A stretch of 64,000 bases of DNA. Origin: a virus. The notes under the pieces were generated by a model. It saw nothing but the letters and a program-made list of their open reading frames with translations. It had not been told where the DNA came from and made no database searches. This document shows positions 4,190-35,023 of the stretch, one piece after another; the first letter of the stretch is position 1, and each line of letters opens with the position of its first letter. Location of the stretch: positions 32,001-96,000 of IMG/VR virus record IMGVR_UViG_3300045988_169015; one strand, 5' to 3'. The position numbers and the translations under genes are program-made.

Positions 4190-4633
4190 TTACTTCACGC
4201 AGACCAATATTTCTACATCAGTATCGACAAAAACTTCTGCAATGATTGCTTTTACTTTAGACCACTCAAGTTTATCTAATCCGCAACCGATTCTTGGCAT
4301 TGCGAGTTTTACATTCTCATCATTCATTGTTCCCTCACAACACAAAAATTCAGCATCTTCAAGAGCCATTCTCATTGTTTCGTAAGTGGGCTTTTGCCAA
4401 TACTTTTCCTTAGTAACAAGATTAAGTTCTGCTCTCCAACCTGTTGTATTAGATACTAAGCAGTCCCCTACTTCTATATTTTGATAATTTCTTTGAAGTT
4501 GTGCTTTTACTCCTCGCTTTGCAAACTCCTTAGCTATTCCTGCACCCATTGCAAGGTCTGTGCTAATACAGTGAACAAGAATATGACCCGTTGGAACTGT
4601 AAATAAGTCTCGCTGTTCTTCTCTGAAAGTCAT
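4190..4633 (-). CDS. macrodomain protein (ADP-ribose binding/hydrolase, TARG1/OARD1-like)
   Basis: 147 aa. Contains HCISTDLAMGAGIAKEF and MPRIGCGLDKL, which resemble the macro-fold signature. Confidence 0.8.
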   Translation of the reverse strand: MTFREEQRDLFTVPTGHILVHCISTDLAMGAGIAKEFAKRGVKAQLQRNYQNIEVGDCLVSNTTGWRAELNLVTKEKYWQKPTYETMRMALEDAEFLCCEGTMNDENVKLAMPRIGCGLDKLEWSKVKAIIAEVFVDTDVEILVCVK

Positions 4634-7734: not shown

Positions 7735-7951
7735 ACTCCTCTATCAGCTCAAAACGGTATTTCTGCTTTGCATCAGGGTATTTCTCACGGTCTACCTCTG
7801 ACAAAAACATTTCATGCGGTCGGGCATATATGCCGTCTTTGTGGTTTCCGCTGTTTTCTGTGCCTTTGCACTCATAAACCACAAGCTGTTCGCCTGTTTC
7901 GGTATGTGTAGCAAGAGTGATTATCCTTGCTGTAAAGCCTTTCCTTCGAGA
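7712..7951 (-). CDS. DUF1653-like reading frame without a canonical start; possible -1 frameshift extension of the upstream kinase/phosphatase
   Basis: Stop-to-stop frame of 80 codons reads ...KGFTARIITLATHTETGEQLVVYE...GIYARPHEMF...YRFELI, which matches the DUF1653 pattern. There is no ATG/GTG/TTG upstream of the domain. The frame is -1 relative to the last 9 codons of 7921-9042. Confidence 0.35.
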   Translation of the reverse strand, partial: SRRKGFTARIITLATHTETGEQLVVYECKGTENSGNHKDGIYARPHEMFLSEVDREKYPDAKQKYRFELIEEYDENARV

Positions 7952-9042
7952 TTAAATACTCTGTCATTGACCTGCACAGGAATCGACTTCGTGTTCCTAT
8001 GTCCGTGAATCTGATATGTATTTTCGGGTGTAGTTCTTATAAAGGTGTCAGCGATAGTCTCAAAATCATTATACGAACCAACGCCGTGAATCATCTGATC
8101 AGTTGCAACAAATGTGAGATTGTCGGGGATTGTGCTGAGGCCGGCGTGAGTTACAATGAACTGATTACCGTTATATGTATAATAAGCGCACTGACCAAAT
8201 TTGCGGTAAAGCATTCTGAGGTCTTTTTTGCTGATCTTGGCAGCATCAAGCTGAGGGCGGGTAACAAGTTCAAATTCCTTGGATTTGCCACGGACATCAT
8301 TGGCATAAAGCCACAGCCATCTCTCATGATTTCCCTCAAGCATAAAGACGTTCTTTTTATCTTTGATAGAGATAAGGAAGTTAAGCACCTCGGCGTTCTC
8401 AATTCCCCTATCGATATAATCACCGAGGAATATGTAGAACTCGTCGTCTTTAAGTCCGCCGTTGAAGTCAAAATAATACTGAAGTGCAGAATAGCAACCG
8501 TGAATGTCTCCAATATGGTGGATTTTCTTATATTCAGACAAATCAATGCTCTTGAACCAGATCTTATCCAGTTCGTCAGGCTTTATTACTTTAATACCTG
8601 CAGGAATCTTTTGTGTAGCAAACCTTGAGTACATTTTATCAATGACCTCATCGGGGACTCTTTTGACCCCGGGTCTGCCCGCATTTCTTCTTTTGACCTC
8701 TTCAATAGGAATATCAGTGAAATCAACACAGTAAATCCTATAACGATATGTTTCACACATATCCTTGTATCTGTTCATTTCTGCTGTCTTGGAATTGGTG
8801 GCGTCAATAACGGTAAATTCACCCTTCTGCATACGATATCCAAGCAAATTAAACAAAGTATTCCATACAGCTTTATCGTTGCTCTGGCTAATACCGTAAG
8901 AACCATCGGGCTGCATTATTGGGCTCTGGTGCATAAGTCTGATATCATCAGGCGAAAGCGCATACGGCTTCAATCCGTTCTGCTCGATCCATGTTGATTT
9001 CCCGCAGCCTGCGGAACCCCTTAAAAGCAATAATACTCTCAT
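7921..9042 (-). CDS. bifunctional polynucleotide kinase / metallophosphatase (Pnkp-like)
   Basis: N-terminal P-loop (GSAGCGKST). C-terminal calcineurin-like motifs GDIHGC, GDYIDRG, GNHE and HGH. Confidence 0.8.
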   Translation of the reverse strand: MRVLLLLRGSAGCGKSTWIEQNGLKPYALSPDDIRLMHQSPIMQPDGSYGISQSNDKAVWNTLFNLLGYRMQKGEFTVIDATNSKTAEMNRYKDMCETYRYRIYCVDFTDIPIEEVKRRNAGRPGVKRVPDEVIDKMYSRFATQKIPAGIKVIKPDELDKIWFKSIDLSEYKKIHHIGDIHGCYSALQYYFDFNGGLKDDEFYIFLGDYIDRGIENAEVLNFLISIKDKKNVFMLEGNHERWLWLYANDVRGKSKEFELVTRPQLDAAKISKKDLRMLYRKFGQCAYYTYNGNQFIVTHAGLSTIPDNLTFVATDQMIHGVGSYNDFETIADTFIRTTPENTYQIHGHRNTKSIPVQVNDRVFNLEGKALQQG

Positions 9043-9054
9043 TATAGTTCTCCT

Positions 9055-9429
9055 TTAATCATTTGTAATTTCGTCGTATTTTCCTTCTATTATGTCGTTC
9101 ATTATTTCTGTAAGCTGCCTGAACTCCTTAGCTCCGCCTACACACGCCCCTGAACATAACTTAAGCTCATATGACCACATGTTTTTTTCTGCAAGTCTAA
9201 TCGGAAATCCCTCATAAATGACAGTACCTATTCTATAAATCTCACCGGTCGCCTCATTTATGGCATTGTCGGTGAGTATACGTAAATATTCTGAATTATA
9301 ATATCTTTTATTGGGAACGTCTTTTAGGGAGTAATAGACCTGAGTAAATTTATTTACAAGAAAAATTACTCCCGTATGAATACGATAGACATCCTGATAT
9401 ACACTTGAATAGATTTTATCAGCAGTCAT
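9055..9429 (-). CDS. hypothetical protein
   Basis: 124-aa ORF. Confidence 0.45.
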   Translation of the reverse strand: MTADKIYSSVYQDVYRIHTGVIFLVNKFTQVYYSLKDVPNKRYYNSEYLRILTDNAINEATGEIYRIGTVIYEGFPIRLAEKNMWSYELKLCSGACVGGAKEFRQLTEIMNDIIEGKYDEITND

Positions 9430-13257: not shown

Positions 13258-14559
13258 TTAATTCATACTTATTTCTGTTTTGTCGTCTCTAATACGATGT
13301 GTCCAAATGGCAAACCTCAGACCATATCCGCCCTCATCGTTCTTAGTAATTTCAAAATACGATATCGTAGCGATCTTGCCTACTATCAATTCGGGGTGTT
13401 TCCAATATTCCACACGTTCTTTTTCGTTAAAACCACTGCCGCAGCCACAAACATAATGCTTGTCCTGATATATAAATTCAACGACAACTCCACCAAGCTT
13501 ACCTGTGTTTTCACCTATGCCTTCGTAAACATCTATAATTCTGAGATCAGCATCTTGCATTACCTTTACTTTGAGCAAGTTATATGTTCTTTTAAAATCG
13601 TACTTGCCCTCGTTAAGGTTGATCATAATTCCTTCTTTGCTCTTATCACGGGCTTTGTTCAGATATTCAGTTATCATTTCCTTATCAGAACCCTGATACA
13701 AAACGGGCAAGAGACGCACATGGGCAAACTTGTTATCCTCAAATATCTTCTCAAGTAACGCTCTGCGCTTCCAGTATTCTATGTCGCAGGTCTGTTTAAT
13801 GAAATCTTCATACCTAAGTGTATCGAACACCATATATTTGAGACCGGTTTTAATGCCTTTCTTTCTTGCCGTAGTAGTTACTATCTTGTAGTTCTCAGCA
13901 GAAGTAAGTTCTTCGCAGTTTATAGCGACAAGCTCACCATCGAAAAAAGCATTATGTATCTTCTTCTCTTTACAAAATTGCGACAAATCTGTTTCGACTT
14001 CGATAAGCCCCTCGACAGGCTGTCCTTGACGAGAATAAAATTCAACCTTGTCATTATGTATAATTGCCGCTAATCTATATCCGTCAAGTTTTTCGGTAAG
14101 GGTAAATTCACCCGTTACCTTTTCGGGCTTTTCAAAATACTTTTCTGCAAGCTGCAAATCAAATACGGGTACAAAATTTTTCCCATAAACGCTATTTACC
14201 GTTTTCGCATCTATTCCAAGCTTTAGTGATTTAGTAATAAGCTGCTTATAATAATCCCGATATTTCTCGGGCTGGCTTTCAATAAATCCTTGCACGATAG
14301 CAATATCCGTGTCTTTACCGGTATTGTTTTCGGACAAGTACACCATCATATCTCTCCAAGTCTGAATAGGAGAGGTGTTATATGGAACTTGTTTATTGAG
14401 TTTTTTGGTGCTGATACCCGTGATTTCAAACGGATTAAGGAGCCATTTCAGAGTCGTCTGGAACAAAGTGTTATCTTGATTCTCTTTAAGGATCTGAATT
14501 TTTGCGTTGCGCTTAGTAGTTGATTGCAGCTTTTTAAATATGTCAAATACCTTGTCCAT
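13258..14559 (-). CDS. ATP-dependent DNA ligase
   Basis: Adenylation motif I KxDG (TEKLDGYRL). 433 aa. Confidence 0.85.
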   Translation of the reverse strand: MDKVFDIFKKLQSTTKRNAKIQILKENQDNTLFQTTLKWLLNPFEITGISTKKLNKQVPYNTSPIQTWRDMMVYLSENNTGKDTDIAIVQGFIESQPEKYRDYYKQLITKSLKLGIDAKTVNSVYGKNFVPVFDLQLAEKYFEKPEKVTGEFTLTEKLDGYRLAAIIHNDKVEFYSRQGQPVEGLIEVETDLSQFCKEKKIHNAFFDGELVAINCEELTSAENYKIVTTTARKKGIKTGLKYMVFDTLRYEDFIKQTCDIEYWKRRALLEKIFEDNKFAHVRLLPVLYQGSDKEMITEYLNKARDKSKEGIMINLNEGKYDFKRTYNLLKVKVMQDADLRIIDVYEGIGENTGKLGGVVVEFIYQDKHYVCGCGSGFNEKERVEYWKHPELIVGKIATISYFEITKNDEGGYGLRFAIWTHRIRDDKTEISMN

Positions 14560-24534: not shown

Positions 24535-25677
24535 TCAGAACAAGTCAAAAGCCTCGTCGTCCTGTCCGTCAGCTTCGGGAACATCATCATCGACTTTCTT
24601 CGCTGACTTCTTAGGCTCGTCCTCGGTTTCGTCAAGCTTTTCCTCGACGGCATTAGGCACATAAATCTCGTCTTCGAACTCAGACATCTTCATATCAAGT
24701 TCGACCAGTCCATCAGAGAAATCATCGCCCTTGCCGAAGTCTTTCAGTACAGGCTCAAAAACTCTGTACTCGTTTACTTTATCTCCAAGTACACCATTCT
24801 TGGGCTTAAAATCGTCAAGCTCCCTGACACCAAGGTCAACCTGCATTTTCTGAGCGGGAGTAAGCATATCATATGTAAAATCAACAGCTTCAGCGCCCCT
24901 GAGAAGAACCACTTCCCAAGCAAGATGACACATATTCTTATTCTTAATGTCCATATATGACATCTTATAATCAAACAACTGCTTATGCTTTTCGTTTTCC
25001 ATATCATACTTGCTTGCATTGAATACAAGCTGCATGGGAATATACTTACTGCCTTCATCCTTGTTTATGTACTGTTTAATATATCCATCAAGATAGATCT
25101 TCTTTTCATCCTTGAAATCAGTCTTATCAATACTGTCCTTATTATAGTAGAAATCAAACGTCAGTCCGAGTCTGCTCTTTCTATCCTCTTCGACAGCGTA
25201 CAGGTTCTGAAGTCTGAACTTTTCATACCATTTACCCTTCGAATATGTCTTCTGGTAATCGCCCACAGCAAGAATCTTGCCCTTGTATTCAGAAAGCTTC
25301 TCTGCAAGAAATTCAATCATATCAAACTGCGTGAGAAATTCCTGACGGCCATCAAACTCTTCGCCCAGATTAACAATGTACTTTCTGTAATTTGCAACTG
25401 TTGCAACAATATCGGGATCCTTGCGATCGTCCCAATCAATTTCAATATCGTTATTATCAGTGTCTTTTGACTTGATAATGCTTCTGGGGCTATCCGACAC
25501 CTCCATAAATGCCATATTGGTATCGCTTTCCTTGATGCCAAAGTTCAGCGAAGTCAGCTCCATAGAGTTTTTCTTGCCATTTCTCACATACTCAATTGTC
25601 TTTGTTGACAGCAAAGGCTTCTTTGAAGTTTCCTTGGGAATCGATATGTTTCCCACAAAGTTAAATCTATTATTCAT
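24535..25677 (-). CDS. putative ssDNA-binding protein (T7 gp2.5-like acidic tail)
   Basis: About 380 aa. The C-terminus DDDVPEADGQDDEAFDLF is an acidic tail ending in Phe. The gene sits within the replication/recombination block. Confidence 0.5.
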   Translation of the reverse strand: MNNRFNFVGNISIPKETSKKPLLSTKTIEYVRNGKKNSMELTSLNFGIKESDTNMAFMEVSDSPRSIIKSKDTDNNDIEIDWDDRKDPDIVATVANYRKYIVNLGEEFDGRQEFLTQFDMIEFLAEKLSEYKGKILAVGDYQKTYSKGKWYEKFRLQNLYAVEEDRKSRLGLTFDFYYNKDSIDKTDFKDEKKIYLDGYIKQYINKDEGSKYIPMQLVFNASKYDMENEKHKQLFDYKMSYMDIKNKNMCHLAWEVVLLRGAEAVDFTYDMLTPAQKMQVDLGVRELDDFKPKNGVLGDKVNEYRVFEPVLKDFGKGDDFSDGLVELDMKMSEFEDEIYVPNAVEEKLDETEDEPKKSAKKVDDDVPEADGQDDEAFDLF

Positions 25678-25969
25678 TCGCATTGTCCTTTCCGAGCAAA
25701 CAGTTTGCTCTTTTCTGTGTTTCTTCTATCGCCTTCTGAATTTCCTGTGGTGAATTCTTGAGCGTTATATCTACAAAGTTCGATATATCTGCAATCAATG
25801 CTGATCTATCATCACCTGTAAATCCGTTGATTTTATCCTTAATGACCTGACAAAAAGCCTGGCTGCCATAAGAAAAGCCAATATTAAACTGCTTCTGCAG
25901 TTGTGTCTTATAAACTGCCTGAAGTTTTGCGATATTGTTATCAACTGTTTCAATCTGATGTGACTTCAT
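25670..25969 (-). CDS. hypothetical protein
   Basis: Start set to the ATG at 25969 (MKSHQIE), behind GGAGAAG. Confidence 0.4.
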   Translation of the reverse strand: MKSHQIETVDNNIAKLQAVYKTQLQKQFNIGFSYGSQAFCQVIKDKINGFTGDDRSALIADISNFVDITLKNSPQEIQKAIEETQKRANCLLGKDNANE

Positions 25970-26756
25970 TGTTCTTCTCCGCCTTTCCGTCAAGATCGGG
26001 TCTGTATCTGAACTTAGGCATAGGCTTCAGCTTATGCAGATTTGCATAATGCTTTCCGTCTATGATCTTCTTGGTGTCTTCGTCACATTCGCCTGTACGG
26101 ATGTACTTATCGAGTGTCTCATATGTAAATCCGAGATTCTCCTCATCAGTCTTACCGCAGAGACCGTCAGTAGGCACCTTATCGATCAGACAGCTGGGAA
26201 GCCCAAGTTCTCTGCCGATTGCCTTAACTTCCTGAACGGTAAAATCGTGGAGAGGGCTGAAATCACCTGCACCATCACCGAACTTGGTTGCGTAGCCGAC
26301 CCAATCTTCACTGAGATTGCAGGTATTGGCTACTCTGCCGCCCCTAAGAGCAGAAACGCAATAAAGGATTGTCATACGAGTTCTGGCAGGGTAATTCGTA
26401 TTCATACACCTGATCTTATTCTCAGGGCATCCAATGGTGTGTATCTGCACAGTTTCATCAACCACTTTGCAAACATCCTCGATGTTAATTTCATACACGT
26501 TCTTATCGGGAATTCCGCATACAGTGCAAGCCGTGTAAGAATATCTGATATCACCCTGCTTACCTCTGGGGAGCAGCACTGCAATTACTCTCTCGGAACC
26601 AAGAGCCTCTGCGCACAGCTTAAGTACCACAGAACTATCCTTGCCGCCCGAAACACCGACGACGGCAGTTGTATTCTCATCGCCGTTCTTGTCAAAGTAC
26701 CAGCGGATCCAGTCAATAATCTTGGAAGTTATCTTCTTTGCATTAAAATCATTCAT
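25950..26756 (-). CDS. nadE: NAD+ synthetase (PP-loop ATP pyrophosphatase)
   Basis: PP-loop motif SGGxDS (VGVSGGKDSSV). 268 aa. Confidence 0.85.
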   Translation of the reverse strand: MNDFNAKKITSKIIDWIRWYFDKNGDENTTAVVGVSGGKDSSVVLKLCAEALGSERVIAVLLPRGKQGDIRYSYTACTVCGIPDKNVYEINIEDVCKVVDETVQIHTIGCPENKIRCMNTNYPARTRMTILYCVSALRGGRVANTCNLSEDWVGYATKFGDGAGDFSPLHDFTVQEVKAIGRELGLPSCLIDKVPTDGLCGKTDEENLGFTYETLDKYIRTGECDEDTKKIIDGKHYANLHKLKPMPKFRYRPDLDGKAEKNNEVTSD

Positions 26757-26768
26757 CTTAATTTCCTC

Positions 26769-27020
26769 TCATTCGTCCAAAGTTATAGAATTATTAATTT
26801 TTATTACGATTTCGTCATCACTCATATAGGAAGCCGCTCCAGATTGAAGATTAACAACACAAGAATAGTCACTAACATCAATCGTTGGCAAGTTCACATT
26901 GGGAATAATACGTATATCGGTATTGATATAGTAAGAACCATTCTTCATAAATAAATTTCCGACTGGTATATCTCCTAATGTGACTATTTTATAACTGTTT
27001 CTGATTCCAATTTGTGCCAT
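26769..27020 (-). CDS. hypothetical small protein
   Basis: 83-aa ORF inside the NAD module. Confidence 0.4.
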   Translation of the reverse strand: MAQIGIRNSYKIVTLGDIPVGNLFMKNGSYYINTDIRIIPNVNLPTIDVSDYSCVVNLQSGAASYMSDDEIVIKINNSITLDE

Positions 27021-27024
27021 AATA

Positions 27025-27453
27025 TCACTCCTTTTTTACATATCCCATTTCCACCTGCCAGCAGAGAGTTGCCAGGGCATTACAAGCCTCGAAAAGTCCG
27101 GCCTTGTCGTCAAGAAATAAATTATAATATATTTTCAAACCGTCTCCATATCTGCCGATTTCCGGGATATTCTCGTTAATGGTATCGAATGGAAGGTTCT
27201 CATCATGAAGAAACTGAATATTCTTTTCGTTATGGGGATTGGCTGTAAACACGATGAAATAAGGATTTAAAATTGTTTTCGCTTTACGTATCAAATTCTT
27301 CGCATGGTCACAGCATTCGCTTTTATACGGCCTCACTGTATCGTCAAGGTCATATGCAATAATCAAGCGTTCATGCTCGATATAGGCATCCCTGAGACGC
27401 TTATACAGAAAACCACCTACGAAAGCATCGTCTTCTTTTACTGTTGATGTCAT
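27025..27453 (-). CDS. HAD-superfamily phosphatase/nucleotidase-like
   Basis: HAD motif I DxDxT (AYDLDDTV) and motif IV (FLDDK). Confidence 0.6.
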   Translation of the reverse strand: MTSTVKEDDAFVGGFLYKRLRDAYIEHERLIIAYDLDDTVRPYKSECCDHAKNLIRKAKTILNPYFIVFTANPHNEKNIQFLHDENLPFDTINENIPEIGRYGDGLKIYYNLFLDDKAGLFEACNALATLCWQVEMGYVKKE

Positions 27454-28919
27454 CAGAAACCTCCTTCATAAAGCATATTACGAACGTCAGCAAGCGTCTG
27501 AGTATTATAGCATTTACCATCCTCGAACACTGTGCGGAACAAGCCATTGACAGGAACTGTCTCAGCTGTAAAGCCGTCCTGATACTTTATCTCGCCGTGC
27601 TCTTTATAGATAAAGCACATACCCTTCTGGGACTTCTTGAATCTCGTATCTGTCTTGGGATTCTTAAAAATCATTATGGGCTTACCATCTACCTCACCAT
27701 AAGTCGCCTTAATAGCTATTGAATATGTATCACGGGTAAAAGGCTTGAGCATATTGTCCTCTTCAACGCACATCATTGAGAAGCTGCCGACACCGAGGAT
27801 TACATTATTGCAGGCAAAACCGTTGTCAATGAGCCTCTGGTATATCTGCTGACAGCGCTGAACGGTGATACTGTCCCCGTAAATCGCCTTAACGTGAGGG
27901 TCGAGTACCTTATAACCCTTGCTGTTGACTGTTCCGCCGAATTCTTCCCAGAGTGCAAACACAGTTTCGGTCACTATCTCAACAGGGTCTCCGCTGTCCC
28001 CTCTTATCAGCATACAGCCGTTGTGAGCCATAATTTCAGGCTTTAGCTGAGGCAAAATATTATTGACTACATTCCAGTAATCATAAGAATCGCATACTAC
28101 ACTGAAACTGTTATTGGGATAAAGCTCAGTCAGCAGCTTACGGAGAAATGTAATCTCGTCGCCGTCAATAGAGAAGTTGCTGGTCATCACTGAATGTTCG
28201 GTAGACACTGCCCCGTATGCTACGGGCTCCTTGGTGCAATCGCAGTGATAATACTTTTCCAGCCAAGGGATTGCGGGCACTGTCGCTGTATTCAGAAACG
28301 AAGTACACCAACCGGCAGAAGAAGCGATTGCGCTTTCAAGACTATGCTGACCTCTGAACGAGAAGTCACCGAGAGCCTTGGCTCTGGGCACGCCATCTTC
28401 AACGCTGATGTCGTAGAACTTATCAACGATCTGACGATACCAATAACCCACATTTGCAGACACCATTGGATGCCAGAGTGAAGCACTCATAAGACTTTCA
28501 AGGAACTGTCCGACCCATACAAAGTCAGGGTGTGTGCTGCTTATTTCCAGCATAGGAACGTGCATGGGGACACGGGTTCCCTCGGGAAGTGCCGATATCT
28601 TAACGGGCAAATAGCCCAGCTCGTGAAGAGCTCTGATTTTTGCGGTATCATATGTACCCTTGCCGAGAGTGCTGCCGAGAACTCTTTCATACTCGGCGCA
28701 GATCTCATCGACAGGCTTATTGAAAAATTCGTTATTGAAATATTCCACAAGATACTTCTCGATGAACGCCTGAAGTCCGAAGAAGACGAGTTTGTCATCG
28801 TGTACTCTGGACATTCTTGGTGTCATATAGGATACGAGCTTAGTGAGCTTGGGACTAAATTGAGCCTGATGGGTCATCTTATAAAAATCGCCCAGAAGCA
28901 TTGGCATTATTTCATTCAT
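27453..28919 (-). CDS. nicotinamide phosphoribosyltransferase family enzyme (NAMPT/NadV or Namat-type)
   Basis: GDFYKMTH, DFSFRGQHS, STEHSV, CDSYD, IRGDSGDP, YGDSI and KKSQKG align with NAMPT signature blocks. Confidence 0.9.
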   Translation of the reverse strand: MNEIMPMLLGDFYKMTHQAQFSPKLTKLVSYMTPRMSRVHDDKLVFFGLQAFIEKYLVEYFNNEFFNKPVDEICAEYERVLGSTLGKGTYDTAKIRALHELGYLPVKISALPEGTRVPMHVPMLEISSTHPDFVWVGQFLESLMSASLWHPMVSANVGYWYRQIVDKFYDISVEDGVPRAKALGDFSFRGQHSLESAIASSAGWCTSFLNTATVPAIPWLEKYYHCDCTKEPVAYGAVSTEHSVMTSNFSIDGDEITFLRKLLTELYPNNSFSVVCDSYDYWNVVNNILPQLKPEIMAHNGCMLIRGDSGDPVEIVTETVFALWEEFGGTVNSKGYKVLDPHVKAIYGDSITVQRCQQIYQRLIDNGFACNNVILGVGSFSMMCVEEDNMLKPFTRDTYSIAIKATYGEVDGKPIMIFKNPKTDTRFKKSQKGMCFIYKEHGEIKYQDGFTAETVPVNGLFRTVFEDGKCYNTQTLADVRNMLYEGGF

Positions 28920-29740
28920 ATGAAATTACCTCTTATTTCTGTTATTTTGTCGTTTTCAATGGGGATTTCCAGTGTATTGACTGTATAGATATGATCAATC
29001 CAGTCTGTCGTGAGCAGTATTCCTTCATACACAGCCTTTTCAAGATGAGTTACAAACAAATCTACCTTAGCTGCACCTGCCGCTTTAAGAGCCTGAGCTG
29101 CAAGAATAAATGTGCCGCCCTTAACACAAAGGTCATCGATTATCAGAATGTTTTTGTCCTTAATATCGGGGGCATTAACCAGCTCATACTTTTCAATCTT
29201 TCCGGTTGAAAGCTCACGCTTCTTGTTACCGTAAAAGTAATTAGTATATGTAAGGTGCTCGCCAAAAGACTTGCAGGCTCCATTATCAGGATAAAATACG
29301 TAATCGGGGGCACTTCGCCTATGTACTTCTTGAATACCGGCATCGTATATAACTTTGACGTTGTTAATAAGCGCCGGAGTTACATTGGAGTGAGGTGTAA
29401 GTATTGTTACCGAATCAAAATTAAGAGAATTGATGATATCGGCAACATATCTGAGGCTGAACGCCATTGAAGACATCTGCCTATCCATTCTTGAATATGG
29501 CATATATGCAATGGTCAGAGTTATAATTGCTTCATCCCAACCGTAATCAACTCTGTTTTCCTTTGACTGTTCATCAAGACACTTCTTGGCCACAATGAGC
29601 TTAAAGATATCAGCGTCCGATTCATATACAAGCTTGATTTCATTTACTGCATCCTTGACATAATAAGTTCCCATATCAAAAATGGTTTCACCATTAGGAA
29701 AACTTTTATCTCCAAAAGGTGCATTATTTATGTAAATCAT
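28916..29740 (-). CDS. ribose-phosphate pyrophosphokinase family enzyme (Prs or Adps-type)
   Basis: PRPP/PRTase loop IIDDLCVKGGT and N-terminal FPNGE. It overlaps the NAMPT-family gene by 4 nt. Confidence 0.8.
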   Translation of the reverse strand: MIYINNAPFGDKSFPNGETIFDMGTYYVKDAVNEIKLVYESDADIFKLIVAKKCLDEQSKENRVDYGWDEAIITLTIAYMPYSRMDRQMSSMAFSLRYVADIINSLNFDSVTILTPHSNVTPALINNVKVIYDAGIQEVHRRSAPDYVFYPDNGACKSFGEHLTYTNYFYGNKKRELSTGKIEKYELVNAPDIKDKNILIIDDLCVKGGTFILAAQALKAAGAAKVDLFVTHLEKAVYEGILLTTDWIDHIYTVNTLEIPIENDKITEIRGNFI

Positions 29741-29742
29741 AG

Positions 29743-30315
29743 TTATACCTCGCTCTCGTTTATGATATCAATCTGACAGCTCTTCATAACTTCGAGTGCC
29801 GCCTTATGCTTTTCAGGTGTTGATCCGGCACAACAGGAGGCGTCAACAACGATTGGCATATCGGGAAGTGCAGCTCTCACCATGAGGGCATTGGATACAA
29901 CACAGATATCGGTGTCCAGCCCGATAAATTCAATTTCGTCGAACATTTTACCTTCACGAATAAGTAAACTCATAAGCTGGGTACTGCCAAATGTGTTCTT
30001 AAGAACGATGTTCCCTTCTCTGACTTCGGGCTCCAATATTGCATATGTATTGGAGTGATACCATGCGTCAGCGACATCATCATTTATCATCCAGCCGAAA
30101 GAACGAGCGAGACAGTGCTGAACAGGAAGTTTTCTCCCCTCAAGAGTTTCAGCATAATCGTTATAATGAGTATCTTTTGTGAATAAAATTGCCGTGTTTT
30201 TATCAGCAGATTTGATTTTTTCAACTACATTAGGAACGATTGCCTGTGCTGCATCAGAACCGAGAGACCCATCGATAAAGTCATTCTGCATATCAACCAC
30301 TACGAGAAGTTTCAT
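29743..30315 (-). CDS. pncA: nicotinamidase / isochorismatase-family cysteine hydrolase
   Basis: VVVDMQNDF (Asp), LPVQHC (metal/His) and GLDTDICV (catalytic Cys). Confidence 0.8.
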   Translation of the reverse strand: MKLLVVVDMQNDFIDGSLGSDAAQAIVPNVVEKIKSADKNTAILFTKDTHYNDYAETLEGRKLPVQHCLARSFGWMINDDVADAWYHSNTYAILEPEVREGNIVLKNTFGSTQLMSLLIREGKMFDEIEFIGLDTDICVVSNALMVRAALPDMPIVVDASCCAGSTPEKHKAALEVMKSCQIDIINESEV

Positions 30316-30620
30316 TCGGCCGCCTCCTCAGTCTTTTCAATCTTGCGCTTACCCTTACTCTCATAATCCTTACAAGAAGAGGGCTTTAACACGTTGATAA
30401 AATTGCCCTTTGAAGTTGTTTCGGTATATGTAATTGGCATCATGGCAGAACGAACAAAATTGCCTTCCTCAGTCTTCTTCGTACATTTGTAACCTCTGAA
30501 CTGAAAATATCTACAAGTATTGCACTTACCGGAAGCATTCATTTCCTTAAGATTTTCGTCATTCAGCTTTGCGCCATCGGAGCCTTTGGCATAATTCGAA
30601 GCATTATAATTATTTGTCAT
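30312..30620 (-). CDS. hypothetical protein
   Basis: 102-aa ORF. TAACTGCAA lies immediately 5' of its ATG. Confidence 0.45.
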   Translation of the reverse strand: MTNNYNASNYAKGSDGAKLNDENLKEMNASGKCNTCRYFQFRGYKCTKKTEEGNFVRSAMMPITYTETTSKGNFINVLKPSSCKDYESKGKRKIEKTEEAAE

Positions 30621-30849
30621 TTGCAGTTATCCTTTCTAATATGTTTTGGGGTCAATTTTAGCCGCACAGCCAAAAGAATTAAGCAGCTGTACGGCAAATA
30701 CTGTAAAAGATTACCTTGATGGATTTCACAACCATCTCTCCTTATGATTTGATTTGTATATGTAAATCGCCACTATGGGTGAACGATGAACTCTGGGCAC
30801 AGTTGACTTCATCACAATCTCCAACCCAATCAAACAGAATTGAATACTG

Positions 30850-31000
30850 CTTGTGAACTACCGACCGTCTAAAGCCAGTCGGCTTCTTGCTTCATCGTCC
30901 TCGTAACCTACTAACTTCACAAGCGTAAATTCCGATAGTTCCTACCGTACTACATTATTATTTAGGCTGATTTAATCAGCCTTAATCCTTCATACAAAAT
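30850..31000 (-). ncRNA. predicted TnpB omega/right-end RNA
   Basis: Called by position only, from the 3' end of tnpB to the right-end hairpin, as in characterised TnpB loci. No structure was verified. Confidence 0.35.
30861..30882 (-). repeat. IS605-type right-end subterminal hairpin
   Basis: Plus strand CCGACCGTCTAAAGCCAGTCGG (stem CCGAC/GTCGG). Confidence 0.7.
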
Positions 31001-32071
31001 ATTTATAGCAGCGTTTATATCTCTGTCGTGACGTGTATTACAACAAGGACAAGTCCACTCTCTTACAGATAAATCCTTAGTTTCCTTATTAATATACCCA
31101 CATACACTACAAGTCTGACTACTTGGAAAGTAAGTATCAATCTTGATATACTGTCTACCATTCCAGTGAACCTTGTACTGTAACTGCCTTGTAAGTTCAT
31201 ACCAACTACAATCAGAAATACTCTTTGCAAGATTATGATTTTTAACCATATTGCTAATTTTTAAGTCCTCACTCACTATCAGTTGGTTTTCCTGAATTAG
31301 TTTGTGAGAAATTTTATGCAAATTATCAACACGGATATTTGTTATCTTCTCATACAGTCTTGCGACTTTAATACGCTGTTTGTTCCTATTATTGCTACCC
31401 TTTGTCTTTTTAGCAAGTTTTCTTTGCTCCTTTGCAAGTTTCTTTTCATACTTGTAAAGAGTTTTGGAGTTTTCAAACTTTTCACCATCAGATGTGATGA
31501 CTAAATCCTTGATACCTAAATCAATACCAACCATAGCACCAGTAGACTTCATCTGAAAATTCTCACAATTTACAAGAATAGAAATAAAATACTTGCCACT
31601 TGGCGTTTGAGATAAAGTTGCAGATTTAATTATACCAACAAATACTCTATGAACTTTTGCTTTTACCCATTTAAGTTTTGGAAGCTTAATTCTGTTCTTC
31701 TCGAAATCAACCTCTATGTTGTTGTTTGTACTGTTAGTAGAATAAGATTTATGATTATTCTTCTTACTTTTGAATTTAGGATAACCAGAATGTTCTTTGA
31801 AAAATTTCTGATATGCGCTATCCATATTATAAACAGAATTAGTAAGAGCAAATTTGTCTACCTCTTTAAGCCATTCATATTCTTTTTTAAGAACTTGATT
31901 AACATAGTTGTTACAACCTATCTTGTTTATAGATTTCTTTTCTGCTTCATAAAGATTTTTCCTATAAGCAAGCGTCTGATTATAAACAAATCTACAACAA
32001 CCGAATGTTTTCTGAATTTGTATTTCTTGTGTTTTATTTGGATAAAGCCTATATTTGAATGATTTAAACAT
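30962..32071 (-). CDS. tnpB: TnpB (OrfB) RNA-guided nuclease, RuvC plus zinc finger
   Basis: 369 aa. Starts [15 protein letters not shown] and has [10 protein letters not shown] (RuvC-I), CSVCG...[18 protein letters not shown] (Zn finger plus RuvC-III). Confidence 0.9.
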
Positions 32072-32120
32072 TGGTTTGTTACCGCCTTTCTACATCACTG
32101 TTATATCACAGCGAGCTTAA

Positions 32121-32142
32121 CCCATCGTCTAAAGCCAATGGG
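32121..32142 (-). repeat. IS605-type left-end subterminal hairpin
   Basis: Plus strand CCCATCGTCTAAAGCCAATGGG, which has the same loop (CGTCTAAAGCCA) as the right-end hairpin. Confidence 0.7.
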
Positions 32143-32215
32143 ATTGCGGCTGGTTTATTTTATTTCAAGTTTTAACATTGCAATAACCTCCATATCCAAT
32201 ATTTCTACGCTATTT

Positions 32216-32300
32216 TGGTACGAGAGATGGGCTTCGAACCCACACGCATTCCTGCAGCAGTTTTTGAGACTGCTCTGTCTGCCTATTCCAGCACTCTCGC
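32216..32300 (-). tRNA. tRNA-Leu (anticodon CAA), type II, CCA encoded
   Basis: Hand-folded. Acceptor GCGAGAG/CTCTCGT, anticodon stem GCAGT/ACTGC, loop CTCAAAA, long variable arm, T-loop GGGTTCGAAGCCC. Confidence 0.85.
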
Positions 32301-32347
32301 ATATTTCGTTAATAATATAGCAACTGACGTTAGCTATTATTAACATC

Positions 32348-32430
32348 TGGTGCGGGTGACAGGACTTGAACCTGCACGCTTGCGCAATGGATCCTAAGTC
32401 TATCGTGTCTGCCAATTTCACCACACCCGC
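32348..32430 (-). tRNA. tRNA-Leu (anticodon TAG), type II, CCA encoded
   Basis: Acceptor GCGGGTG/CACCCGC, anticodon loop CTTAGGA (one A-C mismatch in the stem), long variable arm, T-loop AGGTTCAAGTCCT. Confidence 0.8.
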
Positions 32431-32434
32431 ATGT

Positions 32435-32511
32435 TGGTCTCCCAGATGGGATTCGAACCCATCCTGTAGGGATTTTAAGTCCCTTGTCTCCTGCCTCTGG
32501 ACTACTGGGAG
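32435..32511 (-). tRNA. tRNA with anticodon TAA (Leu codon UUA) but a short 5-nt variable loop
   Basis: Acceptor CTCCCAG/CTGGGAG, anticodon stem AGGGA/TCCCT, loop CTTAAAA, variable loop ACAGG, T-arm ATGGGTTCGAATCCCAT, then A73 and CCA. Confidence 0.75.
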
Positions 32512-32880
32512 TTATGTGCCCGTCTTTCCGGGCTGCCACGATGTCCAGCTTCGACATCTGCCGATTCGGGTCTTACGGCGTGACAACATTTCTTATGTTG
32601 CGCAACGAGCTGGATCCTTGCCCATCACACCCCTATACAGCGGTATTAAGGAACCCCTGCAAAACCTGTTTTTCACATTTCTGTTTTAACGTTATCTTGT
32701 GAGTTCTGGCTTCTGCACCCGTAGGCGTCTCCAATAAGCCGAGGCTGTATTTAAACTTGCCCGATCTACCCCTCGTCAGGGTCTTGATCTCATCAGGAGA
32801 CTTTGTACGTCCGCATTATAATTGTAACGGGCAACGGAGCACCCGTGCGGTCTCATTTCAATAACACCTATTCATACTAC
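32512..32880 (-). ncRNA. ORF-free stem-rich segment between tRNAs (candidate structured RNA)
   Basis: Successive hairpins GCCCG-tctttc-CGGGC, GATGTC-cagcttc-GACATC and CAACAT-ttctt-ATGTTG. No credible ORF. Strand assumed from the flanking tRNAs. Confidence 0.3.
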
Positions 32881-32952
32881 CAAAAGGATAGGACTCGAAC
32901 CTATGACACCTCGGTTAACAGCCGAGTGCTCTACCAACTGAGCTACCTCTGC
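32881..32952 (-). tRNA. tRNA-Asn(GTT)-like with frayed acceptor stem, no CCA
   Basis: Canonical D-arm (GCTCAGTTGGTAGAGC), anticodon arm CTCGG-CTGTTAA-CCGAG and T-arm ATAGGTTCGAGTCCTAT. Acceptor pairs 1:72 and 2:71 are mismatched. Confidence 0.55.
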
Positions 32953-33679
32953 ACGAATACCACAGTCAGACTTATGCGTACACTCAATACGCTTATCTTC
33001 CAACTGTATAACGCTGAGTGCGTTTACTGTACCGTCCATACATTATTTTGTTTGGTTGTATTACGGTCTTATTATTGATACAAGTTAATCTGTATCTCAA
33101 CCACTCAGACAGTTATATTACCATACCGCAAGCTGATGTGGATTTTTTCAGTTACAAGGGTGACACTAAGATAGTCTCCGCCACGTTTTACCCCTTGTTG
33201 TCATCTGTTATGCAGCACAGATGATCTTGGCCACTGAGTTTTCACCTACAAGCTTTGTCTGCATCTGCTTATAGACACCATTGGTGAGCCGCTCGGGTAC
33301 TTACCCCGAATCTCCTTCTGCAGTTAGGCGGCTTGTCATTAGCCCAACGGCTCATATATGCACCCTTACTGACCCCAAGTAAATTATATTAAGGTGTAGG
33401 GTGCTTGTACTCGGTTTCAGGAATTAGCCATCTCTCTTTAACGACGCTCACCGGCATAATTATCGTATGGTCACTTCACCAAAAAGCAAATCCATACTCA
33501 ACGTTTTGATGATTTTTTCAAGCCCCATCCTCACAAGGCATCAGAATCAAGTCTGTAAACGTTCTTCTGGCTTAATTCCTATCACACTTGTCTTAGACTC
33601 AGAGTTGATGTCTCCTATTGCCTGTTCTCCCATTTAGAAAGGTCGGTAGTGTTCACCATGTAATTTGTAAATAATTTTA
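32953..33679 (-). ncRNA. about 730-nt ORF-free structured segment flanked by tRNAs (candidate large ncRNA, ROOL/GOLLD-like context)
   Basis: No credible ORF on either strand. Many local stems, for example CATCTG-ttatgcagca-CAGATG and GAGCCG...CGGCTC. Identity not verified. Confidence 0.35.
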
Positions 33680-33754
33680 TGGATTCAGGTAACGGGATCG
33701 AACCGTTATTCTTAGAGCCAAAATCTAATGTTCTACCACTTAAACTAACCTGAA
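33680..33754 (-). tRNA. tRNA-Gln (anticodon TTG), CCA encoded
   Basis: Acceptor TTCAGGT/ACCTGAA (U1:A72), anticodon arm TTAGA-TTTTGGC-TCTAA, T-arm AACGGTTCGATCCCGTT. Confidence 0.85.
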
Positions 33755-34208
33755 ATATTTGTGCAGCTTAACGTACCGCACATGAGATTTCTCAACGATA
33801 GGATACTATGTTAATCTATAAATTATCCACCATCAACCAGCCCCGAGGATCACACACAGCCGATGGATTCGCCGCTTTAACCTATATCGGGGATTTCTAT
33901 GAACTCTATGATTTACAATTTACAATTTGAACTTTGAAGTGCAGCAAGTCTGCCATCAAGTACGCACGTTTGCTACTATAAATTCTGAACTTTAATGTTT
34001 AAAACAATTAAGCTTTGAATTTTAAACTTTCAGCTATTATTCGGACTTTAAACTCTGCCCGAAAACATCGTAGATACTCGATATTCTTAATATCTTTAGC
34101 ATTTGGAAGCTTTTACAGTTTCAAATTGTTTTGTTCATCATTTTAGACTGTTGATGTTCAGTTGAAACCAGTTAAGTGTTTTCGGTTGACGATGGATAAT
34201 CAGCTTAA

Positions 34209-34865
34209 TCAGTAGTTAATTTCGATTTCGGTGGTTGCATTTGCCACTGTAATGGCTGCGTCCACCTCAGCTTCGAAAGCGTCGATCTTATTTTTCAAGT
34301 CTTCGATTGCCTTCTTTGTGTCAATACCCTCGATAAGATCAAAAGTATTTTCATCGATGTACTTTGCTCTCGCCGCATTTATGATTTCCACCATTTCATC
34401 GGAAATAGTGTTATTACTGCTGTTTGTTCCATAAAGACCAATGATATATGTCTCGCAGGCTTTTGTCAGCTTCTCTCCGTTGTTATTCTGGAGCAGACTC
34501 TGCGTATTTGTATATTGAGTTGCCATGGTATTGAGCAGAGCCTTCATATAATCAATACCCGTCTGTTTCATATAAATAGCTTCGGCAACAGTCATTTGCT
34601 CTCCACCGATAGATACGATTGTGGAAGCGTTTGCCTTATTCACTGCCTTCTTGATGGCATTATTCCTGTTGATGAGAGCGACTATTTTATCGTAGCTGCC
34701 CTGCATCTCTGCCTTTACGTCAGTGATATTTTTGCCGTTTAGCGTGCGCATTGTATGCTTGCTTACGTTGCAGAATGTCGCACTGCGAATCTCTGCTGTG
34801 ATTCTGTTACCGAGCACCTTCAGCTCGGAAAGTGCCTTTGCGATCGTCATTTTTTCGTTGGTCAT
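34209..34865 (-). CDS. hypothetical coiled-coil protein
   Basis: Start set to the ATG at 34865 (MTNEKM), behind AAGGAGGAG. The longer ORF reads through a regulatory motif. Confidence 0.55.
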   Translation of the reverse strand: MTNEKMTIAKALSELKVLGNRITAEIRSATFCNVSKHTMRTLNGKNITDVKAEMQGSYDKIVALINRNNAIKKAVNKANASTIVSIGGEQMTVAEAIYMKQTGIDYMKALLNTMATQYTNTQSLLQNNNGEKLTKACETYIIGLYGTNSSNNTISDEMVEIINAARAKYIDENTFDLIEGIDTKKAIEDLKNKIDAFEAEVDAAITVANATTEIEINY

Positions 34866-34896
34866 GATGACTCCTCCTTGATTTTTAAATTGTAAA

Positions 34897-34912
34897 ATAT
34901 CCAATATGTTTT
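34897..34912 (-). repeat. 16-nt direct repeat ATATCCAATATGTTTT (copy 1)
   Basis: Identical 16-mer at 35169-35184. The two copies bracket tRNA-Lys. The core ATATCCAATATG equals the promoter core at 548-576 and 11772-11800. Confidence 0.7.
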
Positions 34913-34947
34913 CGCACTAATAAATAATAGTATAAAAAACATATATT

Positions 34948-35023
34948 TGGTGAGCCATTGGGGATTTGAACCCCAGACCAATAGTTTAAAAGACTACTGC
35001 TCTACCGACTGAGCTAATGACTC
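34948..35023 (-). tRNA. tRNA-Lys (anticodon TTT), CCA encoded
   Basis: Acceptor GAGTCAT/ATGGCTC (one G-U pair), D-arm GCTCAGTCGGTAGAGC, anticodon loop CTTTTAA, T-arm TGGGGTTCAAATCCCCA. Confidence 0.85.

Follow-up and report, generated by a model that had tools for sequence, protein, structure and literature searches.

The subject of this analysis is a group of NAD+-related genes in a 64-kb window of a phage genome of ~146 kb (positions 32,001 to 96,000 of IMG/VR record IMGVR_UViG_3300045988_169015), in which gene identities were assigned by Pfam, PHROG and NCBIfam scans. Six open reading frames (ORFs), all on the minus strand, occupy positions 25950-30315, where a preliminary description of the sequence had placed a six-gene NAD module. 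They encode a 190-aa isochorismatase/PncA-like protein (29743-30315), which is the first conserved gene of the module; a 274-aa Prs-family, Adps-like protein (28916-29740; phrog_619, E=2.6e-64); a 488-aa NAMPT-family, Namat-like protein (27453-28919; PF04095 and PF18127; phrog_448, E=3e-155); a 142-aa HAD-like accessory protein with the motif DLDDTV (27025-27453); an 83-aa protein (26769-27020); and, as the last gene, a 268-aa NadE (25950-26756). The coordinates confirm the 4-nt overlap between the Prs-family and NAMPT-family genes that had been reported, and the module genes are closely spaced throughout, either overlapping or separated by at most 12 nt.

The 83-aa ORF has homologues in only two near-identical contigs, L003 and L004 (L-numbers are labels of the related loci retrieved). 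It belongs to no Pfam family, and among the families scanned it resembles only phrog_7431, and that weakly (E=4e-4). Thus, all six ORFs are where they had been described, although the 83-aa ORF is lineage-specific and lies outside the conserved module. A 102-aa Cys-containing ORF (30312-30620, minus strand) overlaps the start of the PncA-like gene by 4 nt and is possibly co-transcribed with the module. It is restricted to the close relatives L003-L005, and the scans gave no Pfam or PHROG match for it and one weak NCBIfam match (NF003331, 16.9 bits versus a cutoff of 560).

The outer two conserved genes encode a predicted nicotinamidase and a predicted NAD+ synthetase, as had been proposed. The PncA-like protein matches PF00857 (E=6e-22), and its best solved-structure matches are the PncA proteins of P. 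horikoshii and M. tuberculosis. Neither its catalytic triad (D8/K106/C138) nor its set of metal ligands (D48/H50/H67) varies in 83 homologues, so that the Asp-Lys-Cys triad, the Asp/His/His metal site and the isochorismatase fold that characterize nicotinamidases all appear to be present. Since it scores merely 19 bits against the NCBIfam PncA model, it is a divergent member of the family. NadE matches PF02540 (E=3e-46) and scores 154.7 bits against TIGR00552, for which the cutoff is 63.65. Its SGGKDS motif, noted previously, lies at residues 36-41, and SGGxDS is invariant among homologues. Every one of its top PDB matches is a single-domain NH3-dependent NAD synthetase, and by sequence the window NadE is likewise a single-domain, NH3-dependent enzyme without a glutaminase domain.

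The two central genes resemble those of NARP1, the phage NAD+ reconstitution pathway composed of Adps and Namat (Osterman et al. 2024, bioRxiv 10.1101/2024.02.11.579819). The Adps-like protein falls below every NCBIfam Prs cutoff (for example, 75.6 bits versus 113 for TIGR01251). Against a hidden Markov model (HMM) of canonical phage Adps, the window protein scores 225 bits and E. coli Prs 134 bits, and in a neighbour-joining (NJ) tree the window protein nests among phage Adps sequences. In sequence searches, the Namat-like protein scores 402.7 bits to 9W5W and 9W5X, the crystal structures of SpbetaL1 Namat whose accessions are given in PMC12774641, 187 bits to Xcc (Xanthomonas) Nampt and ~157 bits to human NAMPT. 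The best fold match of its AlphaFold2 (AF2) model is also 9W5X (TM ~0.8). In an NJ tree that also includes six NARP1 phages and two phages with NARP2-type Nampt, it lies on the Namat side, far from NARP2 Nampt. Sequence scores, fold match and phylogeny thus agree with the NARP1-type pair that had been recognized from the sequence, and the phylogenetic choice between Adps/Namat and Prs/NAMPT comes out for Adps/Namat: by these sequence comparisons, the central pair belongs to the phage NARP1 lineage and not to housekeeping Prs and NAMPT, and the Adps-like protein is a predicted ADP-ribose pyrophosphokinase. Host-derived housekeeping genes, the other origin considered for the module, are rejected in view of the phage lineages of both central enzymes together with the phage context described below.

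A search of 50,697 deposited phage records with the PncA-like protein gave just seven matches, every one from the human gut. In IMG/VR, at least 339 contigs carry a PncA relative, which marks either of the two versions of the cassette described here. Synteny was counted in the best 80 of these at least 339 loci, whose PncA homologues are ~50% identical to that of the window. An Adps-Namat module is found in 62 of the 80, and in ~55 of the 62 the order is PncA-Adps-Namat-(HAD/Macro)-NadE, with proteins 30-60% identical to those of the window. The same order is found in Phass-1, a distant gut phage that uses genetic code 15, and the module occurs in rearranged order in MT835544. Neither PncA nor NadE lies within 6 kb of Namat in any of 80 loci retrieved with SpbetaL1 Namat. 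The combination of PncA, Adps, Namat, accessory gene and NadE is not accidental, and these genes constitute a conserved module. In L039 and ~15 similar loci, which form one sub-lineage, two ORFs, of ~400 aa and 74 aa, separate Adps from the Namat-like gene, so that genes which otherwise overlap lie ~1.5 kb apart. A scan for loci anchored on the Namat-like protein recovered 13 viral loci and one genome locus, its peptide patterns being too specific. The host assignment, taken from the names of metagenome-assembled genomes (MAGs), points to Lachnospiraceae and Clostridia.

In 14 of the 80 PncA loci, the arrangement is instead PncA-DUF5662-PncB-NadD-NadE, with a full-length nicotinate phosphoribosyltransferase (NAPRTase, PncB) and a NadD-type nucleotidyltransferase; judged by their sequences, these sister loci carry a complete Preiss-Handler route. 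The two module types are interleaved in the trees of both NadE and PncA. The clearest case is the pair L055 and L082, whose DNA is 96.7% identical as far as position 9137 and homologous again from NadE onwards, with PncA proteins 99% and NadE proteins 91% identical. The sole difference between these flanks is the cassette, DUF5662-PncB-NadD in L055 and Adps-Namat-165aa-NADAR in L082. Hence, the Adps and Namat cassette occupies the slot of PncB and NadD, and the two have been swapped in this pair. Given that PncB and NadD convert nicotinic acid to nicotinic acid adenine dinucleotide (NaAD), the most parsimonious reading is that the cassette of Adps and the Namat-like enzyme would do the same.

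Two further ORFs accompany these loci. The DUF5662 protein (~180 aa) is constant in the phage PncA-PncB-NadD-NadE cassettes (L067 8497-9063, L008 9275-9823, L006 8578-9099). An ORF of 210-224 aa with weak similarity to radical-SAM/4Fe-4S proteins lies between PncA and the cassette in loci of both module types (8497-9141 in L082 and L055, 8531-9163 in L010 and 8552-9226 in L008).

The pocket of the Namat-like enzyme for the pyridine substrate bears on the same question. In SpbetaL1 Namat, whose residue numbering is used here, nicotinamide is stacked between Phe189 and Tyr15' and hydrogen-bonded by Asp215, with Ala242 lining the pocket, and the D215A mutation reduces activity 8-fold (PMC12774641). 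The equivalent residue of human NAMPT, Asp219, sets substrate specificity, and D219S is listed as a switching mutation (PMC7096376, PMC4919578). The catalytic core is retained in the Namat-like proteins linked to PncA and NadE: phospho-His245 (H242 in the window protein), Arg192, Arg306, Phe189, Tyr15 and Asp13 are invariant in 62 linked sequences. In all 62, by contrast, Asp215 has been replaced by Ala or Ser and residue 242 is Ser, whereas all 87 canonical Namat/Nampt sequences keep Asp215 and Ala242. Broken down by source, Asp and Ala are found in all 78 canonical IMG/VR loci and all eight named reference phages, while Ala or Ser at 215 with Ser at 242 is found in all 61 PncA/NadE-linked loci, the window and Phass-1; the 119 closest metagenomic homologues all have the Ala/Ser pair. 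In the window protein, A212, S239, N210 and G184 correspond to D215, A242, G213 and H187, respectively, so that it lacks the Asp215 and Ala242 by which the nicotinamide pocket of NARP1 is recognized in sequence. Gly213 is Asn, Lys or Arg in the linked set, and profile-profile alignment places a Ser of phage PncB opposite Asp215.

Among 105 columns conserved to at least 95% in the canonical set, eight (T128, Q185, H187, G213, D215, S239, A242 and V304) never keep the canonical residue in the linked set, and seven of the eight lie no more than 4 residues from a pocket residue (hypergeometric P=1.4e-4). By sequence, the pyridine pocket has therefore shifted from acidic to neutral or basic, which matches what carboxylate binding would require. 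The linked Namat-like proteins form one clade (200/200 NJ bootstrap replicates), plus Phass-1. Namat-like proteins of the Ala215/Ser242 type, with a very long SCH insertion, are also found in L179, L180, L181 and L185 (Clostridia MAG contig CAAFCY010000143.1), where a metallophosphoesterase and an HNH endonuclease are encoded next to them.

The donor substrate is addressed by a second set of residues. The published SCH motif of Namat is GSXfXfXfTRD. In the linked sequences, the Namat-type GS[F/Y]392 is kept in 62/62, where Nampt has GGG. The SCH region of the window protein reads GSFSMMCVEEDNMLKPFTRD; it retains GS-F and TRD and departs from the motif as published, with 15 residues between GS and TRD versus 6 in the consensus. 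The net insertion of ~9 residues lies between G378-S379-F380 and T395-R396-D397. At the SCL stacking position, that of Arg40, where Arg, Lys or Tyr is expected, the window protein has Arg38. In Phass-1, a canonical SCH motif occurs together with the Ala/Ser pocket.

The accessory gene of the window module encodes a probable phosphatase. Its HAD motifs (D35xD37xT39, T70, K107 and D115-D116) are unchanged across 37 homologues, and its AF2 model has a confidence (pLDDT) of 92. In the viral structure library BFVD, it best matches a 'HAD-like domain' protein (TM 0.74, E=4e-9), with 5'-nucleotidase, acid phosphatase and PNKP phosphatase entries ranking next. Searches of Pfam, PDB sequences and PDB profiles returned no meaningful match, and a PDB fold search was not significant. 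The motifs and the model together have the hallmarks of the HAD superfamily and support the earlier assignment of a HAD hydrolase, which we predict to be a capless HAD-like phosphatase. The slot between Namat and NadE holds a HAD gene in 16 loci, a Macro gene in ~24 (with NADAR added in three of these) and a 165-aa ORF in two (one with NADAR), and is empty in ~15. The NADAR proteins (PF08719, E ~1e-27; for example, L082 11883-12296 and L070 11261-11674) are encoded just ahead of NadE, sometimes behind the Macro gene.

HAD homologues also lie beside Adps and Namat in 12 canonical NARP1 loci (L109, L121, L129, L134, L136, L142, L143, L145, L148, L151, L152 and L157). Because these loci have Asp215, the HAD protein would be a general, undescribed NARP1 accessory and not one specific to modules with PncA and NadE. 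In NARP1-AP, NARP1 is accompanied by Adpp, a Macro-domain ADPR-1''-phosphate phosphatase, where ADPR is ADP-ribose (Osterman et al. 2026, bioRxiv 10.64898/2026.01.28.702374). By analogy with Adpp, the HAD protein probably dephosphorylates phosphorylated ADPR species. The window also encodes a Macro-domain protein at 4190-4633 (minus strand, 147 aa; PF01661, 25.1 bits versus a cutoff of 22), 22 kb from the module. It is weakly similar to a module-associated Macro protein and may add a further ADPR-handling activity, whether as an ADPR-phosphate phosphatase like Adpp or as some other hydrolase of ADP-ribose.

With slightly better than even confidence, we read the module as a NARP1-derived phage operon that would rebuild NAD+ after NADase-type defences by way of the nicotinic-acid branch. 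From the sequences, we infer what each enzyme would do, the use of nicotinic acid, NaAD as the product, what the HAD protein would act on and a role against defences, as follows. PncA would hydrolyse nicotinamide to nicotinic acid and ammonia, while Adps would pyrophosphorylate ADP-ribose with ATP to give ADPR-pyrophosphate (ADPR-PP). The Namat-like enzyme would then join ADPR-PP to nicotinic acid, giving NaAD, which the NH3-dependent NadE would convert to NAD+, possibly reusing the ammonia released by PncA. The HAD phosphatase would act as an accessory, returning phosphorylated ADPR such as ADPR-1''-phosphate to ADPR in parallel to the Macro-domain Adpp. The preliminary description had pointed out that PncA and NadE are paradoxical beside a route that uses nicotinamide, which our results bear out, and had offered either a hybrid route or altered substrates as the solution; the loss of Asp215 and the slot shared with PncB-NadD favour altered substrates. 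The textbook step, in which Namat joins ADPR-PP to nicotinamide, is thus probably not the reaction of this enzyme. We give about even chances to the more specific proposal that the enzyme is a Namat-derived nicotinate ADP-ribose transferase, an activity not described before, forming a deamidated counterpart of NARP1 that is swappable with PncB-NadD and abundant in phages of the human gut, with the HAD protein as a second, non-homologous solution to the task of Adpp.

Several observations weigh against the proposed route. Because the linked Namat-like proteins make up a single clade, with Phass-1 besides, the strict covariation of residues 215 and 242 perhaps reflects one to three evolutionary events rather than 62. 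In human NAMPT, D219A is listed as a loss of activity and not as a switch (PMC7096376, PMC4919578). The pLDDT of the AF2 model is below 50 across residues 185-249, the pocket itself, and pocket geometry is for that reason not derivable from the model. In the lineage of L179-L181 and L185, no Adps, PncA or NadE lies within 8 kb of the Ala/Ser-type gene. The SCH motif is broken by an insertion of at least 9 aa, the second adenine-stacking aromatic residue, Tyr396 (motif position 7), is not alignable, and the position of Arg40 is Met in 23 sequences of the clade; for these reasons, ADPR-PP rather than phosphoribosyl pyrophosphate (PRPP) as the donor is not secure. The separate Macro protein of the window weakens the argument that HAD replaces Macro. 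The search for NadD and PncB, which found neither, covered 64 kb of the ~146-kb genome. Finally, the proposed route would be dearer than NARP1 by one ATP, and any selective advantage that it confers is a guess.

Four other explanations were considered. In the first, which we regard as unlikely, the central pair is an ordinary NARP1 and PncA and NadE are independent helpers that boost the two ends of a Preiss-Handler route completed by the host's own PncB and NadD, so that two routes run in parallel. The clear Adps/Namat ancestry of the pair and the conservation of the catalytic His, Arg192, Arg306, Phe189, Tyr15 and Asp13 are what an ordinary NARP1 would show, and PncB and NadD are common in gut Firmicutes. 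Yet the Asp215 that bonds nicotinamide is gone from every linked enzyme, and its replacement by Ala costs SpbetaL1 Namat 8-fold in activity. PncA would, moreover, compete with such a pair for the same nicotinamide, canonical loci with PncA or NadE nearby number 0/80, and the swap with the PncB-NadD cassette is left unexplained if the two halves of the module are independent.

About as improbable, in our judgement, is an enzyme of relaxed specificity that converts nicotinamide to NAD+ and nicotinic acid to NaAD, with NadE clearing the NaAD and PncA the excess nicotinamide. The listing of D219S in human NAMPT as switching or broadening substrate affinity is consistent with this explanation, as is the persistence of both Ser and Ala variants at position 215. 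The joint changes in the pocket (Gly213 to Asn, Lys or Arg, Ala242 to Ser, and others), however, look like re-specialization, and a phage-encoded PncA would be hard to justify were nicotinamide still a good substrate.

A deamidated route based on PRPP is a good deal less probable than either of these. Here, the Prs-like enzyme would make PRPP, the Namat-like enzyme would make nicotinic acid mononucleotide, host NadD would adenylate it and phage NadE would finish the synthesis. The altered adenine clamp (the SCH insertion, the unalignable Tyr396 and Met for Arg40 in 23 sequences) fits such a donor, and clamp mutants of SpbetaL1 Namat retain activity with PRPP. Against this, the Prs-like protein lies inside the phage Adps clade, GS[F/Y]392 is found in 62/62 sequences where Nampt has GGG, Phass-1 pairs a canonical SCH motif with the Ala/Ser pocket, genes for the ADPR-handling Macro and NADAR proteins are found within the same modules, and the replaced cassette includes NadD. 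Taken together, GS[F/Y], the SCH motif of Phass-1 and the Macro/NADAR neighbours favour ADPR-PP over PRPP as the predicted donor.

The least probable, by a small step, is that the module is general auxiliary metabolism supplying NAD+ for replication whether or not a defence is active, as suggested by gut jumbo phages reported to carry many NAD synthesis genes that were read as metabolic boosters (PMC11662467) and by the ability of NARP2 to raise NAD+ even without a defence system; an Adps-type enzyme, however, implies a feedstock of ADP-ribose, which builds up mainly after NAD+ cleavage, and the accessory proteins (Macro, NADAR and HAD) are suggestive of ADPR derivatives that defence systems generate. 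This explanation concerns purpose and not chemistry, and it is compatible with the nicotinic-acid mechanism proposed above.

The DNA around the module is that of a phage: the window encodes NrdD, a family-A-like DNA polymerase, a DnaB-like helicase, Sak4, a primase-like zinc ribbon and an ATP-dependent ligase. In IMG/VR contigs of 111 and 146 kb, the PncA protein is 98-99% identical to that of the window and the other module proteins are 83-100% identical, except for the 83-aa ORF and NadE in one contig. Among cultured and deposited phages, a nucleotide search found as few as 3 records, the top one matching over 29% of the query. Neither PncB, NadD nor NMNAT was found in the 64-kb window by HMM search and tblastn, in keeping with the earlier statement that no NMN/NaMN adenylyltransferase or PncB is visible there, and a PADLOC scan gave only weak, generic matches to phosphoribosyltransferases (PRTases) and PP-loop proteins. 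The G+C content of 26000-30000 is 0.428 versus 0.356-0.395 in the immediate flanks, which is compatible with gain of the module as a cassette. Promoter and terminator sites in 25000-32300 were no more numerous than in shuffled sequence.

Approximately 340 nt upstream of the module is a gene for a 369-aa IS200/IS605-type TnpB/OrfB-like protein (30962-32071, minus strand; phrog_506, E=3.5e-134). A TnpB with OrfB_IS605 and Cas12f-like domains is also encoded in L186, a 640-kb NCBI contig, at 13342-14526, just downstream of the homologous module and past one 143-aa ORF. Directly upstream of the TnpB gene and the module in the window is a cluster of six tRNA genes (Leu-CAA, Leu-TAG, Leu-TAA, Asn, Gln and Lys; 32216-35023, minus strand), and in Phass-1 a large tRNA array likewise lies just ahead of the module. 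Elsewhere in the window are a polynucleotide-kinase-like fusion of an AAA_33 kinase and a Metallophos metallophosphatase (7921-9042, minus strand) and the DNA/RNA ligase (13258-14559, minus strand), which is ATP-dependent and not NAD-dependent.

The module can be compared with several known systems. Like NARP1, it has adjacent, overlapping genes of the Adps and Namat clades in a phage, the catalytic core and the GS[F/Y]...TRD frame, and its transferase comes closest in sequence and fold to the Namat crystal structures described by Lan et al. 2026 (PMC12774641). Unlike NARP1, it has Ala/Ser215, Ser242 and Asn/Lys/Arg213 in the pocket and an SCH insertion of at least 9 aa, its central pair is flanked by a nicotinamidase and an NAD synthetase (0/80 in canonical NARP1 loci), and its predicted pyridine and product are nicotinic acid and NaAD. 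With NARP1-AP it shares a phosphatase-type accessory within the operon, and its sister modules have Macro in the Namat-NadE slot; the accessory in the window operon is, however, a 142-aa HAD fold unrelated to Macro, which is encoded elsewhere in the window.

As in Preiss-Handler salvage (PncA-PncB-NadD-NadE), PncA comes first and NadE last, and the complete version with PncB and NadD is present in sister phage loci whose PncA and NadE are closely related. In the window, by contrast, Adps and the Namat-like gene replace PncB and NadD, and the ribosyl-adenylate part would derive from ADP-ribose and not from PRPP and ATP. NARP2 (Nampt and Nmnat, in phage KVP40) and NARP3 (PnuC and NadR; PMC13464706) likewise restore NAD+ by phage-encoded enzymes, but no Nmnat, NadR or PnuC is found in the window, the transferase is of the Namat type with GSF, and the feedstocks differ. 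An identity with NARP3 is rejected on account of its composition, PnuC and NadR.

No description of a nicotinic-acid NARP1 route was found in the literature searched, full text included. Nicotinic acid, NaAD, PncA and NadE go unmentioned in the papers that describe NARP1, NARP1-AP, RyDEP and the structure of Namat. A survey of gut jumbo phages reports pncA, pncB, nadD and nadE genes, including pncB-nadD-nadE clusters, and the PncA-Adps-Namat-NadE arrangement is absent from it (PMC11662467). The module is apparently confined to uncultured gut phages, which would explain the silence of surveys of cultured phages.

NAD+ depletion is among the commonest anti-phage strategies of bacteria, and the known phage answers to it are NARP1, NARP2 and NARP3. 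If the proposed route is true, the module would be a fourth phage route to NAD+, with a new chemistry in which NaAD is made from ADP-ribose, and it flags the HAD phosphatase as a recurrent accessory gene of NARP1. The pocket residues (Asp to Ala/Ser, Gly to Asn/Lys/Arg and Ala to Ser) offer a natural, testable case of changes that might re-target the NAMPT fold from an amide to an acid. More broadly, the module suggests that phages may fit their NAD-rebuilding route to hosts whose salvage uses nicotinic acid.

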